From: Ardenticatenia bacterium
Lineage (GTDB): Bacteria > Chloroflexota > Anaerolineae > 4572-78 > NAK82
DNA length: 64,000 nucleotides
Assembly (NCBI GenBank): GCA_003130875.1
Contig: QEXY01000143.1
Span: forward strand, 18,338-82,337
Direction of reading: 5' to 3'
A program made the position numbers and the translations under genes. The notes under the pieces were generated by a model that saw only the letters and a list, made by a program, of their open reading frames with translations, was not told the origin of the DNA and did no database searches. This document shows positions 8,468 through 54,431 of the stretch, piece by piece. Each line of letters opens with the position of its first letter. Position 1 is the stretch's first letter.

Positions 8468-8564
8468 ACCACAAAATCTTGTGGTACAAAGTGACGAGAA
8501 GCGCAACAAATTGTATGTCAACGCCCCGGGTGGGACTCGAACCCACAGCACACGGCTTAGAAGG
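8468..8564. repeat. attR-type direct repeat (overlaps the functional tRNA-Arg 3' half)
   Basis: Identical to 3717-3813. It covers 54 nt downstream of the tRNA plus tRNA nt 32-74. Confidence 0.9.
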
Positions 8565-8595
8565 CCGTTGCTCTGTCCGCTTGAGCTACCGGGGC
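8522..8595 (-). tRNA. tRNA-Arg (anticodon TCT)
   Basis: Manual cloverleaf: acceptor GCCCCGG/CCGGGGC, D arm GCTC/GAGC, anticodon stem ACGGC/GCCGT, loop CTTCTAA, T arm GTGGG-TTCGAGT-CCCAC, discriminator G. 74 nt, with no encoded CCA. Confidence 0.9.
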
Positions 8596-21635: not shown

Positions 21636-21767
21636 AAGAGCTTCCGTTTGGGCTAGAATGTGTCTGCTTGCTCTCAGGCGCAGTCGGCTATGCCTGATGC
21701 GGTGCTCATTGTAATATCAGGTTACAAGGTGTCAAGGTTATACTTCACCGCAAAACGGTTGCCTTTT

Positions 21768-21857
21768 GAGGGTGTTGAAAAAGTCCCTTGACCGCTCAGA
21801 TTTTCATAGGAAAATGGGCCAATAAAGCGGGTAACTAAAGAGTTTTTCAACACCCTC
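21768..21857. repeat. MITE-like element, copy 1 (~88 bp, terminal inverted repeats AGGGTGTTGAAAAA)
   Basis: Near-identical to 34828-34915 and, in reverse orientation, to 54280-54365. Flanked by CCTTTTG on both sides. Intergenic, between divergent genes. Confidence 0.8.
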
Positions 21858-21938
21858 CTTTTGACATTTTATCTGGAATATGGCATGTTTCACATACACG
21901 GGTGACAAGTGACCGGGTGATCCAAGAGGGAGAACACA

Positions 21939-23315
21939 ATGGATACGGTAACGCTGGCACGTCTGCAGTTCGGTATCACAACCGTCTATCACTTCTTTTT
22001 TGTTCCCCTGACGTTGGGGCTCCCCATCTTAGTAGCGATCATAGAAACCATCTATGTGCGTACCGGCAAAGAAGTTTACAAACGCATGACAAAGTTCTGG
22101 GGCAAATTGCTCCTCATCAATTTTGCCCTGGGCGTGGTCACCGGTATCGTGCTGGAATTCCAGTTTGGCATGAACTGGTCGGAGTATGCCCGTTTCATGG
22201 GCGATATCTTCGGGGTGCCTCTGGCAACTGAGGCTTTGAGCTCGTTTTTCCTGGAGTCGACCTTCTTGGGCGTTTGGATTTTCGGTTGGAATAAGCTGCC
22301 CAAAGCATTGCACGCCGCGACGATGTGGCTGGTGGCACTTGGCTCCAATCTTTCGGGTCTATGGATTCTGATCGCCAACTCGTTTATGCAGCAGCCTGTG
22401 GGTTATGCCATCGTCGACGGTCGGGCGCAGTTGACAGATTTCGGGGCTCTGATCACCAATCCCAATATCATCACCCAGTATCCTCACGTCCTCACCTCAG
22501 GGGTTGTGACGGCGTCCTTCTTCATTATGGGTATCAGCGCTTATCACCTACTCAAGCGAAACGACGATCGAGAAGCCTTTCAGCGCTCTTTTCGCATCGG
22601 GGCGATCGCTGCCATCATCGGAAGCGTGTTGGTCATTCTGGTCGGCCATGCCCAGACTCAGCACATCGCGCAGAGCCAGCCAATGAAGCTGGCCGCACTC
22701 GAAGCGCTCGTTCGCAGCGAGGATCCTGCTTCCTTCTCCCTGTTCAGTGTTGTGCACCAGGATGAGAGTCGAGTCTCAGAGCTGGTTGCGATTCGCATCC
22801 CGGCCGTGCTGAGCTTTTTGACCTACAATCGCTTCAGTGGAGAAGTAAAGGGTATCGAAGACCTCCAGGCAGATTACGTGGCTCGTTTGGGTCCTGATAA
22901 CTACGTGCCTCCAGTTATGCTGAGCTACTTCACCTTCCGGATTATGGTGGGTGCTGGCTTTCTGTTGGCTCTCCTGGCATTTATTGCGGTGGTTCTGGTG
23001 TGGCGTGGAATTTTTGAGCGCGCTCCACTCTTCCTCCGGGTGCTGATCCCGGCCATCGGACTGCCTTATATCGCGAACACCGCTGGTTGGCTGCTCACCG
23101 AAATGGGGCGCCAGCCATGGATCGTCTATGGCTTGCAGAAGACCAAGGACGCGATATCACCGGCTGTCACGCCAGGCATGTTGGTCTTCTCGCTTCTGCT
23201 CTTCACCCTGGTCTATGGTGGATTGATGATCGCGGATATCTACTTGTTGATGCGATTTGCCAGACAAGGCACCACGGAACATGAGCAGCCGGAATCAGCT
23301 GCCCTGGCTTATTGA
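21939..23315 (+). CDS. cydA: cytochrome bd ubiquinol oxidase subunit I
   Basis: N-terminus LARLQFGITTVYHFFFVPLTLG, a Q-loop region, and GWLLTEMGRQPW. Confidence 0.93.
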   Translation: MDTVTLARLQFGITTVYHFFFVPLTLGLPILVAIIETIYVRTGKEVYKRMTKFWGKLLLINFALGVVTGIVLEFQFGMNWSEYARFMGDIFGVPLATEALSSFFLESTFLGVWIFGWNKLPKALHAATMWLVALGSNLSGLWILIANSFMQQPVGYAIVDGRAQLTDFGALITNPNIITQYPHVLTSGVVTASFFIMGISAYHLLKRNDDREAFQRSFRIGAIAAIIGSVLVILVGHAQTQHIAQSQPMKLAALEALVRSEDPASFSLFSVVHQDESRVSELVAIRIPAVLSFLTYNRFSGEVKGIEDLQADYVARLGPDNYVPPVMLSYFTFRIMVGAGFLLALLAFIAVVLVWRGIFERAPLFLRVLIPAIGLPYIANTAGWLLTEMGRQPWIVYGLQKTKDAISPAVTPGMLVFSLLLFTLVYGGLMIADIYLLMRFARQGTTEHEQPESAALAY

Positions 23316-32483: not shown

Positions 32484-32561
32484 ATGAAACCTCGTGAAAC
32501 AGAGATTAGAGAATTAGTGCGCCACGTGCTCCATCGCGTGCTGCGCGAGACCCAGCGCGGT
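32484..32561 (+). other. putative BMC encapsulation-peptide-like helix on RpiB
   Basis: [26 protein letters not shown] has an amphipathic i/i+3/i+4 hydrophobic pattern resembling Pdu/Eut N-terminal targeting helices. Confidence 0.5.
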
Positions 32562-33191
32562 GAACATAGGCTGCTGACCAGCCAAGAGATCGAGCAATTG
32601 GAACCGGGGAGCAAAATCCAGATCGAACCAGGCACCATCGTCACCCCTATGGCACGCGAAATTGCGTTAGCGCGCAAAATTCTGATCGAGGAGATCTCTG
32701 CTAAAAGCGGTCAAGCGACTCCTGCACCTGCGACAGGCAAGGTGGTGGCTTTGGGGGCCGATCACGGAGGCTATGAGCTCAAAGAGCTGTTGAAACCTTT
32801 TCTCATCGAGCTGGGCTATGAAGTGTTGGACGTCGGCACGCACAGCAAGGAAGCGGTGGATTATCCTGACTTTGCTTATGCGGTCGCCCGGCATGTGGCC
32901 AGCGGAGCTGCCTTTCGTGGCATCATCATCGATGGTGCAGGTATTGGCTCGTGTATGGTTGCCAACAAGGTGCCAGGGATACGGGCAGCAATGTGCTATG
33001 ACCAGATGTCTGCTGTTAACAGCCGTGCGCACAACGATGCAAATGTGCTCACTCTGGGTGCCGGTTTGTTGGGCCCCAATCTGGCAAAGCAGATTGTCAA
33101 GACCTGGTTGAGCACCAATTTCGAGGGAGGTCGTCATCAACCGCGTATTGACAAGATGATGGCTATCGAGGCACGATATCTCAAGAGATAA
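32484..33191 (+). CDS. rpiB: ribose-5-phosphate isomerase B (RpiB/LacAB family) with ~90-aa N-terminal extension
   Basis: The core [14 protein letters not shown]...[15 protein letters not shown]...[12 protein letters not shown] is canonical RpiB. The N-terminus carries an amphipathic helix [18 protein letters not shown] plus a second conserved-looking segment. Confidence 0.88.
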
Positions 33192-33211
33192 GAAGAGGGA
33201 TCCTAGAGGGT

Positions 33212-34123
33212 ATGGTGTCGACATCAAGAAGTAATATGCAACTAGATTCCAAGACAATTGATTCATTGGTTGAAGAGATAACCAGACAGGTACTGACGGT
33301 TTTGAAGGAGCAGAGCAGTCGGTCAGATGTCTTTCAGCAAGCAACGGACACCATGTCCTCTTGCAGTCGATGCGAGGAGAGAGGTGCGCAACACCTGCCT
33401 AAGACGATTCGAGATGACACAGGGCGCCCAGGTGTCCTATCGGATGCACGAATAACGGCCCAGGAACTCGCCCGCTATATCGACCACACGTTGCTCAAGC
33501 CGGACGCTACTTACGCTCAAATTTCTCAGCTGTGCGAGGAAGCGCGCCAGTACGGTTTTGTCACGGTGTGCGTCAACCCTGTCCATGTGCGATTGTGTGC
33601 CCAGCTACTGCGCGGGTCGGGGGTCGGGATCTGTTCTGTGGTAGGATTTCCACTTGGGGCAACACCCACCAATGTCAAGTGTTATGAGACACAACAGGCG
33701 ATCAGCGATGGCGCCACTGAGATCGATATGGTGATCAACATCGGTGCACTCAAAAGCAAAGATTACGACTCGGTCAGAGAAGATATCGCGGCTGTGGTAC
33801 GTACCTGTCATAACCATGGGGCCATTTGCAAGGTGATTATCGAAGCGGCATTGTTGACCGATGATGAAAAGATCAAGGCGTGTCAGCTGGCTAAGGAAGC
33901 GGGCGCCGACTACGTCAAAACATCCACCGGGTTTGGACCTGGTGGCGCAACCTTGCATGACGTGATGCTGATGCGCCAGGCGGTGGGACCGGACATGGGG
34001 ATCAAAGCGGCCGGTGGGATCAGAACCTACCAGGATACCGTGGCGATGATCAAAGCCGGTGCCACCCGCATCGGCGCTAGCGCCAGCCTCAAAATTATGG
34101 AAGGCGCGCGTTCAGCATCCTGA
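33212..34123 (+). CDS. deoC: deoxyribose-phosphate aldolase with ~85-aa N-terminal extension
   Basis: Core [12 protein letters not shown]...VCV...[11 protein letters not shown]...DYVKTSTGF (Schiff-base Lys)...GIKAAGGIR. The N-terminal extension contains [19 protein letters not shown]. Confidence 0.88.
33236..33313 (+). other. putative BMC encapsulation-peptide-like helix on DeoC
   Basis: [26 protein letters not shown] is an amphipathic helix, followed by a low-complexity linker before the aldolase core. Confidence 0.5.
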
Positions 34124-34143
34124 GGCGGTAAAGGGGGCGGCCT

Positions 34144-34824
34144 GTGAGCCGCATTGCGTCCTATATTGATCACACTTTGGTACGCGCCGATGCCACACCC
34201 GAGCAAATCGCTCGTCTGTGCCGAGAGGCATGCGAGCATCGCTTTGCTGCTGTGGCGGTCAACGAAGTCCATGTCCATCTCGCTGGTCGTCTGCTCCGCG
34301 GCACAGGGATCTCCGTGGCGTGTGCTATAGGTTTTCCTCTAGGTGGGACGAGCACCTGGGTGAAGTGGTACGAGGCACGCAGCGCACTGCGCGGGGGCGC
34401 CAATGAGCTGGATGTGATGATCTACTTGGGCGCTCTCAAGGATGGTCGCTATGACTTGGTAGAGCATGACCTGAGCGCTATCGTGCGGCTCTGCCGCGAT
34501 TATGGTGCGCGGTGCAAGGCCATCTTGGAATGTGCTCTGCTGACCGAGGACGAAAAAGTGCGCGCGTGTCAGCTGGCAGTTGCCGCGGGGGTGGACTTCG
34601 TAAAAACGTCAACAGGCTATGGCCCGAGCGGCGCAACAGTGCACGATGTGACCCTGCTACGTCGTTTGGCTCCACCTACTGTAGGTGTCAAGGCAGCGGG
34701 TGGCATTCGCACTTATGCGGATGCAATCGCCATGATAGAAGCCGGTGCAACACGTCTCGGAGTCAGTGCCCAAGCCAGTCTGCAAATTTTGAGCGAAGAG
34801 CGCTTGCTCTTGGAAAACCCATAG
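34144..34824 (+). CDS. deoC: deoxyribose-phosphate aldolase (second paralog, no extension)
   Basis: GTG start after the RBS AAAGGGGG. YIDHTLVRADAT...ANELDVMIYLG...DFVKTSTGY...GVKAAGGIR. Confidence 0.85.
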   Translation: MSRIASYIDHTLVRADATPEQIARLCREACEHRFAAVAVNEVHVHLAGRLLRGTGISVACAIGFPLGGTSTWVKWYEARSALRGGANELDVMIYLGALKDGRYDLVEHDLSAIVRLCRDYGARCKAILECALLTEDEKVRACQLAVAAGVDFVKTSTGYGPSGATVHDVTLLRRLAPPTVGVKAAGGIRTYADAIAMIEAGATRLGVSAQASLQILSEERLLLENP

Positions 34825-34827
34825 CAG

Positions 34828-34915
34828 AGGGTGTTGAAAAAGTCCCTTGACCGCTCAGATTTTCATAGGAAAATGGGCCAATAAAGCGGGTAACTAAAGA
34901 GTTTTTCAACACTCT
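34828..34915. repeat. MITE-like element, copy 2, with 8-bp target-site duplication CATAGCAG
   Basis: TIRs AGGGTGTTGAAAAA / TTTTTCAACACTCT. CATAGCAG is present at 34820-34827 and 34916-34923. The left duplicate contains the deoC2 stop codon. Confidence 0.85.
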
Positions 34916-34950
34916 CATAGCAGTGGATGTGAAACGGATGAGGTTTTGCG

Positions 34951-35226
34951 ATGTACATCGGACGCGTGCGGGGAAGTGTGATGAGTACAATTAAATTGGA
35001 GATCTATGAAGGGTGTCGTTTGCTCGTGATCGATCAGCTGGATTTAGACGGCAATCCGACCGGCGAGTACGATATCTGCGTCGATGTCGCCCAGGCTGGT
35101 CCGGGCGATATTGTATTCGTGATCGACGAGGGCAATTCGGGGCGTCAGATCCTCGGTCGTGAGCCGGACGGCGCGGTGCGAGCTGTGCTGGCCGGCGTTG
35201 TGGATGAGATCGAATGGCACGCATAA
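34951..35226 (+). CDS. bacterial microcompartment vertex (pentamer) protein, EutN/CcmL/PduN family
   Basis: 91 aa. The pattern MYIGRVRGSVMSTIK...GCRLLVIDQLDLDGNPTG...VDVAQAGPGDIVFV...AVLAGVVDEIE aligns motif-for-motif with EutN (G.V..T.K...KLL.V..D..G.P.G...A.D..GAG.G..V...GIVD). Confidence 0.85.
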   Translation: MYIGRVRGSVMSTIKLEIYEGCRLLVIDQLDLDGNPTGEYDICVDVAQAGPGDIVFVIDEGNSGRQILGREPDGAVRAVLAGVVDEIEWHA

Positions 35227-35260
35227 CCGCGCTAATGTTTGACGTGAGAGGTGATGGGAA

Positions 35261-40573
<5,313 letters not shown>

Positions 40574-54149: not shown

Positions 54150-54279
54150 AGGTAAATTCCCGCAGGGCTTTTCACTCCTATAATAGTATTTCCTCGACTG
54201 GGTGAAGGGGCAGACCCAACCCCCGATCCGGACGCGCCGCCAGCATACGCCGACCATCCGGAATGAAGCGAAACCCTTG

Positions 54280-54365
54280 AGAGTGTTGAAAACCTTTAGT
54301 TACCCACTTTATTGGCCCATTTTCCTATGAAAATCTGAGCGGTCAAGGGATTTTTTCAACACTCT
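54280..54365. repeat. MITE-like element, copy 3 (inverted orientation)
   Basis: AGAGTGTTGAAAAC...TTTTTTCAACACTCT is the reverse complement of copies 1 and 2 with a few substitutions and one indel. No clear target duplication. Confidence 0.8.
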
Positions 54366-54376
54366 CACTTTTCTTA

Positions 54377-54427
54377 TTGACAACAAATCGAAACCGTGCT
54401 ATAATGATTTTGTAGCAAATCGCAACC
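54377..54427 (+). promoter_or_regulatory. perfect consensus promoter (TTGACA-17-TATAAT) with two CAAATCG(A/C)AAC direct repeats, upstream of the DeoR gene
   Basis: TTGACA at 54377-54382 and TATAAT at 54400-54405. The repeats are at 54384-54394 (in the spacer) and 54416-54426 (just downstream of the expected start site), 32 bp apart. Confidence 0.55.
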
Positions 54428-54431
54428 CATA

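Follow-up and report, generated by a model that had tools for sequence, protein, structure and literature searches.

A MITE family with apparently IS1182-type ends in uncultured Anaerolineae, probably inserted non-randomly at promoter -35 boxes

Three near-identical repeats in the window (the whole 64-kb stretch of DNA that was analysed) are copies of a true MITE, a non-autonomous DNA transposon, whose family is widespread in uncultured Anaerolineae. The ends of the element appear to be of IS1182 type, and its copies have probably been integrated by a transposase acting in trans, non-randomly, at the -35 box of promoters. The evidence for this targeting is an evolutionary pattern drawn from metagenome loci, in which the boundary of the target-site duplication lies 5 bp upstream of the -35 hexamer.

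Three copies of the element in the window

The copies and the features around them are as follows.

21763-21767 and 21858-21862: CTTTT repeats flanking copy 1
21768-21857, + strand: MITE copy 1, 90 bp, between a LysM-protein gene (- strand) and cydA (+ strand)
21861-21866: TTGACA near copy 1, 3 nt past the element end
34820-34827: left copy of the maximal reading of the copy 2 duplication, CATAGCAG
34821-34826: left target-site duplication of copy 2, ATAGCA, overlapping the deoC2 stop codon TAG at 34822-34824
34827-34916, + strand: MITE copy 2, 90 bp, between the deoC2 stop codon and the EutN/CcmL (BMC-P) gene
34827-34844, + strand: left terminal inverted repeat of copy 2, GAGGGTGTTGAAAAAGTC
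34847-34874, + strand: internal promoter-like match in copy 2, TTGACC-16-GAAAAT, 9/12, pointing toward the EutN gene
34899-34916: right terminal inverted repeat arm of copy 2
34917-34922: right target-site duplication of copy 2, ATAGCA
54279-54366, - strand: MITE copy 3, 88 bp, between the Vut_1 transporter gene and a DeoR-family regulator gene
54377-54405, + strand: sigma70-type promoter TTGACA-17-TATAAT of the DeoR regulator gene, 12/12 matches, starting 10 nt past copy 3

The sequence-only reading had described three near-identical non-coding copies, the third inverted, and all three lie where it placed them, with a length of 88-90 bp and no coding capacity. Copies 1 and 2 are identical across 82 nt, a match of which none is expected in shuffled sequence, and the inverted copy 3 is the most diverged, with about 4 substitutions and a 2-nt deletion. 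The element boundaries were set by a family-wide comparison with dozens of relatives, in which conservation stops at GAG and CTC; copy 2 and copy 3 each gained one base per side in this way, and the coordinates of copy 1 stayed the same. The inverted repeats first read as about 14 nt with the ends AG[G/A]...[C/T]CT are real, yet they extend outward to GAG[G/A]GTGTTGAAAAA...TTTTTCAACAC[C/T]CTC, which is invariant in the window copies, and measure 15-18 nt, since the terminal inverted repeat GAGGGTGTTGAAAAA is perfect over 15 nt or runs to 18 nt with one mismatch. No ORF of at least 80 aa lies inside any element of the family, whose members at 88-101 bp are too short for a sizeable one. Scanning of the 64-kb window recovered no further end-like sequence besides the three copies, and the earlier remark that the window holds no autonomous transposase partner with matching ends proved correct. 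The sole Rfam match in the window is a tRNA gene at 8522-8595 (- strand).

The element strand folds into a long hairpin as RNA (-31.8 kcal/mol, z = -4.6), as the proposed folding check had anticipated; the DNA fold is similar, and the interior core is conserved.

Element family and sister families

Two scans were performed, a permissive one of reference genomes with 10-nt end cores and one of metagenomes with longer ends. The reference-genome scan found the same element, 75-95% identical along its whole length, in at least 3 further MAG species of Anaerolineae, and the close relatives of the window locus are labelled Anaerolineae. The metagenome scan yielded 117 loci, which gave 96 distinct GAG...CTC elements once duplicates were removed, and the 15-18-nt inverted repeats are invariant across all 96. 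Clustering of the interior sequences defined the window family, with 38 distinct copies of 88-101 bp, and four sister families, three in Anaerolineae and one in termite-gut Defluviitaleaceae, that share nothing with it except the 15-18-nt ends. This combination of a single end pair with unrelated interiors is expected of a transposase that reads only the ends. A blastn search of plasmids with the element gave no match, and four viral-contig matches to the 18-nt end were all discarded as chance matches in coding DNA.

The Defluviitaleaceae family (Ga0123355 loci L026, L130, L144, L165, L170, L173, L179, L186, L190 and others), hereafter the Firmicute family, consists of 104-110-bp elements with the same ends and with 5-bp duplications only. 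A 53-bp mini-element at L181:2888-2940 comprises little beyond the two ends (GAGGGTGTTGACAGATGAAAATCTAGGTCACCAGAGGGTTTTTCAACACCCTC). Elements with the ends CAGGGTGTTGAAAAA...TTTTTCAACACCCTG form a separate class of about 80-107 bp with 4-bp CTAG/TTAA/CTAA/TTAG duplications and no promoter association, found at L004, L008, L013, L022, L047, L049, L057, L063, L073 and L089 in Dehalococcoidia, Verrucomicrobia, Fibrobacteria and other MAGs. A second transposon lineage, spread over several phyla, seems to use the same end core.

Target-site duplications and empty sites

The search for copies in related genomes, suggested with the original description, found many more of them, with flanking duplications far above chance. 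Exact abutting direct repeats of 5-9 bp flank 25 of the 38 window-family copies, against a chance of 0.13% per element (P about 4e-63), and they show no consensus. Their lengths are 5 bp in three copies, 6 bp in eight, 7 bp in nine, 8 bp in four and 9 bp in one, and the duplication length is therefore variable, not fixed at 7-8 bp. For copy 2, the perfect 8-bp duplication reported previously holds as a duplication, with CATAGCAG as its maximal reading; the minimum is the 6-bp ATAGCA, which the terminal G and C of the element extend to CATAGCAG. The left repeat does contain the deoC2 stop codon. The CCTTTTG on both sides of copy 1 is likewise a genuine repeat in its maximal reading, with CTTTT as the minimum. 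Copy 3 has no exact flanking repeat, and its duplication has decayed, consistent with copy 3 being the most diverged. The idea that the GA/TC of the ends belongs to a fixed 8-bp target failed on comparison with the flanks by hand.

Insertion was directly evident at copy 2. The deoC2/EutN junction lacks the element in four relatives, whose deoC2 proteins are 93, 90, 88 and 86% identical, and the compared loci are fully syntenic (rpiB, deoC, deoC2, EutN/CcmL and a 1770-aa sensor kinase). The gap between deoC2 and EutN measures 28-31 nt in these relatives versus 126 nt in the window, 96 bp longer, and in the alignment the relatives are cleanly without the element and one repeat copy, ATAGCA being present once. 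This presence and absence is explained by insertion of copy 2, which accounts for the longer operon junction in the window, and the empty sites thereby show what had been proposed from the window alone, that the element landed at the deoC2 stop codon and split deoC2 from the BMC-P gene. One of the empty-site MAGs carries the MITE family at other loci. Copy 2 is also present in a same-strain JGI contig, and a short-read Logan contig breaks inside it. A second filled/empty pair is formed by a metagenome contig (L131, filled) and the very MAG with family copies at other loci (L079, empty), with flanks 91% identical. Empty sites were not obtained for copy 3, where the relative departs from the window's gene order immediately past Vut_1, or for copy 1, where the relatives hold an older copy.

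Copy 2 is a lineage-specific insertion in an operon-like gene row, which widened the gap from about 30 to 126 nt and added a strong hairpin. It could affect the expression of the EutN gene through an mRNA hairpin or through the weak internal promoter-like match, the -35-like part of which is not conserved in the family. The surrounding gene row (window 32484-40573 and L106-L117) carries a lone EutN/CcmL gene, encoding a microcompartment vertex protein, after rpiB and two DeoC-family aldolase genes and ahead of the 1770-aa multi-PAS/GAF hybrid sensor kinase gene, an order conserved in all relatives; no shell-hexamer gene was found among the called genes of the 20-kb loci L106-L117.

The duplications and clean empty sites also bear on whether the repeats are REP/REPIN palindromes moved by a RAYT (IS200/IS605-like), or else a structured RNA or terminator family, as their long hairpin with a conserved interior core and their strictly intergenic location might suggest. 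Such an origin is highly improbable, as target duplications and clean empty sites are present, REPINs make no duplications, and the ends are identical to those found beside DDE transposase fragments; no RAYT gene was noticed. With regard to an RNA, the element matched no Rfam family either at gathering scores or with the limit relaxed to E = 1, the stem is not followed by a T-run of the terminator kind, and the elements occur in both orientations relative to genes. The three repeats are therefore supported as a MITE.

At the site of copy 1 (window 21640-21950), two relatives (L244:2165-2512 and L245:2165-2512) hold a family member that has diverged from copy 1 and is oriented the other way round. 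The presence of a copy identical to copy 2 at this older site suggests re-insertion, inversion, replacement or gene conversion, and the region upstream of cydA may be an old, repeatedly used site. Compared with the 93%-identity relative, the window loses collinearity precisely where copies 1 and 3 lie: a LysM gene stands in place of a Fer4/CCG gene at copy 1 (about 21640-21770, versus L244), and the DeoR regulator in place of a sortase at copy 3 (about 54150-54430, versus L248). The elements may accordingly mark rearrangement junctions. Elsewhere, orthologous intergenic regions of different species carry elements of different subtypes, numbers and orientations (L032:4773-4862 versus L079:3555-3772; L036:2509-2606 versus L077:6244-6333), which indicates that these promoter regions were used repeatedly and independently.

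Position relative to promoters

The sequence-only reading had remarked on promoters near two of the copies. The perfect TTGACA-17-TATAAT beside copy 3 was confirmed, 10 nt from the redefined end, as was the TTGACA after copy 1 (21861), and promoter adjacency turned out to be the most striking property across the whole family. Most Anaerolineae elements carry a sigma70-type promoter in one outward flank, and either element end can face it. With a strong promoter defined as at most 2.5 mismatches to TTGACA/TATAAT, a spacer of 16-18 and a -35 starting 10-18 nt from the end, such promoters adjoin 18/38 elements of the window family and 7/18, 5/12 and 1/6 in the other Anaerolineae families, compared with 44 of 28,400 flanks drawn at random from these loci (0.15%). 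None was found beside the 14 elements of the Firmicute family, which is thereby a natural counterpart against which to compare the Anaerolineae families. Whether the flanking promoters point at genes was assessed with a crude ORF-based test, whose outcome was too noisy to be of use.

The position is sharpest when it is measured from the duplication. A TTGACA with at most one mismatch begins exactly 5 nt past the duplication in 18/47 elements (P = 4e-20; background 24/1410, 1.7%), with 0-4 at each other offset from 0 to 30, and a good -10 box is present in 16 of these 18 best sites. Measured from the element end instead, the -35 peak is smeared over 10-14 nt. The target logo consists of five unconstrained bases followed by T (39/48), T (37/48), G, A, C and A, with an A/T-rich -10 at the right distance. 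The single-base peak at 5 nt implies that one target cut keeps a constant distance to the -35 and that the other floats, leading to the 5-9-bp duplications. The empty site of the L131/L079 pair has the promoter TTGCAG-18-TAGAAT in unaltered form, which indicates that the promoter pre-exists and is not carried by the element. Among the window copies, copy 3 takes the canonical position upstream of the DeoR-regulator promoter, in keeping with the family-wide offset of 11-16 nt; copies 1 and 2 obey the 5-bp rule weakly, with TTTATC and with GTGAAA or TTCCAA, respectively, at that distance.

Four elements (L135:1188-1277, L136:1843-1952, L140:831-928 and L237:3743-3839) have a good promoter on both flanks, with -35s 13-15 nt from the ends, and sit between back-to-back divergent promoters. 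Such sites would be symmetric, palindrome-like targets.

An unlikely account of this pattern is that intergenic insertion was roughly random and that only promoter-adjacent copies were retained, either because the hairpin insulates from read-through or because the A-tracts serve as a kind of UP element. An insertion that hits a gene or separates it from its promoter would indeed be lost, several elements lie between divergent promoters, and TTTTT/AAAAA tracts are found in the element end some 10 nt in from its tip. Older copies also have a slightly higher share with a promoter (12/18) than those matching the consensus at 95% identity or more (10/20). However, the bias already stands at 50% in these youngest copies, and the invariant is the 5 nt between the duplication boundary and the -35, with the element end ranging over 10-14 nt. 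Selection on function should fix the distance from element to promoter rather than the cut site, and it should tolerate sites further upstream equally, yet those are unused. Selective retention must nevertheless contribute to the pattern, since genic insertions are lost. Targeted integration by a DDE-type transposase is further opposed by the Firmicute sister family without a promoter link, and by the variable stagger, which is unusual for DDE transposases.

Origin of the element ends

The proposed check for a transposase gene with the same ends turned up IS1182-type fragments in metagenomes of other samples. All of them were decayed or truncated, and an intact autonomous copy bounded by these ends was not recovered. 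In L143 and L065, the last 92 codons of a transposase are followed after 160 nt by a right end identical to that of the MITE. This C-terminal fragment matched Pfam DDE_Tnp_1_6 (PF13751) with 42 bits versus a cut-off of 25.1, and the NCBIfam IS1182 family transposase (NF033551) with E = 7.6e-16 over positions 414-488/488. L180 carries a left end and, about 85 nt further in, a transposase N-terminus interrupted by stop codons, which matched DUF772 with 66.6 bits and IS1182 with E = 9e-21 over profile positions 14-111/488. Both Pfam domains pass their cut-offs, and the NF033551 matches are to fragments only and fall below the full-length cut-off. A 27-aa transposase tail had no Pfam or NCBIfam match, and the longer fragment later matched. 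L215 is an internally deleted copy of the IS, and L201:110-260 is a 151-bp derivative built from both of its ends.

A tblastn search of plasmids returned mostly genes annotated as IS1182 family transposase. The best match was a 1704-bp IS on a plasmid of Thermaerobacter sp. FW80 (NZ_CP037896), bounded by GAGGGCTCTGAAAAA / TTTTTCAGAGACCTC, whose ends are identical to those of the MITE at 13/15 positions; an IS1182 member from B. pumilus has unrelated ends. As for the decayed metagenome IS, its subterminal sequence is resembled by the window family over no more than the outermost ~25 nt of one end; the rest of the MITE interior is unlike this IS, which is thus not shown to be the direct parent. 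Further candidates for an autonomous IS were set aside: L025 2869-4601 is a chance end match inside PTS genes, each of the other long end pairs is two separate MITEs, and 10 kb upstream of 'element A' in L068 showed a solo end without a transposase.

Derivation of the ends and the MITEs from an IS5-family element is quite improbable. In its favour, the IS5 end resembles the MITE end, and the transposase fragments also match IS5-family models (E = 4e-9 for the C-terminal and 1.7e-17 for the N-terminal one), only somewhat more weakly than IS1182. In addition, the CAGGGTGTTGAAAAA-ended sister class has 4-bp CTAG/TTAA/CTAA duplications of the IS5-group type. Such 4-bp YTAR-target duplications are confined to this CAGGG-ended class in other phyla and do not occur in the window family. 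On the other side, IS1182 is the best match of both the N- and the C-terminal fragments, DDE_Tnp_1_6 passes its cut-off, and the annotated full-length IS that comes nearest, with almost the same ends, is classed in the IS1182 family. The variable duplications of 5-9 bp misfit the IS5 subgroups and fit the variability of the IS1182 family, whose direct repeats range very widely, from 2 to 60 bp (ISfinder range quoted in PMC7335449). On these sequence comparisons, the MITE ends are assigned to the IS1182 type.

Proposed mechanism of integration

Under the IS1182 assignment, a transposase supplied in trans would bind the ends and integrate the element by staggered target cuts, which would leave the observed 5-9-bp duplications. 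One cut would fall 5 bp upstream of the TTGACA-like -35 of an existing promoter, the position seen as a pattern across the elements, and the second would float 5-9 bp further upstream. We infer that a trans-acting IS1182-family transposase directs integration to that position. Most likely it would take the -35 region for its own end (GTG-TTGAAA-AAG versus nnn-TTGACA-a); alternatively, the cue could be RNA polymerase at the promoter or bent promoter DNA. Recognition of a pseudo-end is favoured by two observations, namely that GTG-TTGAAA-AAG within the element end includes a hexamer close to a -35 box, 7 nt in from the tip, and that elements lie end-to-end with other ends at 3-10-nt spacers. That the transposase and its MITEs use the sigma70 -35, or bound RNA polymerase, as a landing mark and cut exactly 5 bp upstream is put forward at about even odds.

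Closely abutting elements are found at L118:8671-8931 (the same region as L068:1-261), L215:638-747, L161:10401-10498, L201:14-260 and L220:2193-2310. The full element in L118 has flanks that are reverse complements of each other (GATGAT / ATCATC) instead of direct repeats.

Comparison with known systems

Similar to Correia elements, RUP, ERIC, Nezha and MITEAba12, the window elements are small, non-coding, intergenic and hairpin-forming, with terminal inverted repeats, target duplications, many copies and movement in trans. In contrast to known MITEs, several families with unrelated interiors have one end pair in common. Bacterial MITEs have been described with fixed short targets (e.g. TA) or only a general intergenic bias (PMC10969869, section 3.3), and that 2024 review of prokaryotic MITEs (PMC10969869) describes no family placed at a constant base distance from promoter -35 boxes.

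Within the IS1182 family, which includes the Thermaerobacter IS and IS1272 of staphylococci, the ends of the Thermaerobacter IS are nearly identical to those of the MITE (GAGGGCTCTGAAAAA versus GAGGGTGTTGAAAAA), whereas the window elements have no transposase and are only 90 bp long. IS1272 makes no duplications, unlike the window family with its 5-9 bp. The target also differs, the MITE family preferring the upstream edge of the -35 hexamer over a stem-loop.

Targeting directed by element ends is characteristic of IS30. Likewise, some IS1182-family members target inverted-repeat or palindromic DNA, and IS1272 performs 'IR-replacing' transposition (PMC5678879). As with IS30 and IS1272, the target of the MITE family resembles its own end, elements abut other ends, and the copy 1 site seems to have been re-used or replaced; unlike with these, most targets are host promoters rather than other copies, and duplications are made. 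The best conceptual analogue is the ISAjo2 group of the IS1202 family, dif- and pdif-targeting IS that insert 5 bp from the XerC side of dif sites, a fixed short distance from a protein-recognition sequence (PMC10132070). Its transposase family and ends are different and it lies at the XerC side of dif always in one orientation, whereas the MITE family targets the promoter -35 hexamer with either end facing it. The literature searched contained no report of a -35 preference in the IS1182 family and no earlier description of this element or of -35-directed insertion.

Biological meaning

On their own, the three repeats represent a MITE family of an ordinary kind, not described before, from a Chloroflexi lineage that is uncultured. 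For the window, the element explains the longer deoC2/EutN junction, and two gene-order breakpoints coincide with its copies. What makes the repeats matter is the family-wide rule that the duplication boundary lies 5 bp upstream of the -35. If this rule reflects the mechanism of integration, it would be a rare bacterial case of promoter-directed transposition, which is best known from eukaryotic elements, and it would offer a sequence-level handle on IS1182-type target choice, poorly understood for that family, as well as a ready catalogue of real promoters in organisms without genetics. If true, the elements would constitute a natural promoter-tagging transposon system in bacteria, in which core promoters are systematically split from upstream control DNA, amounting to a clade-wide regulatory rewiring in Anaerolineae.
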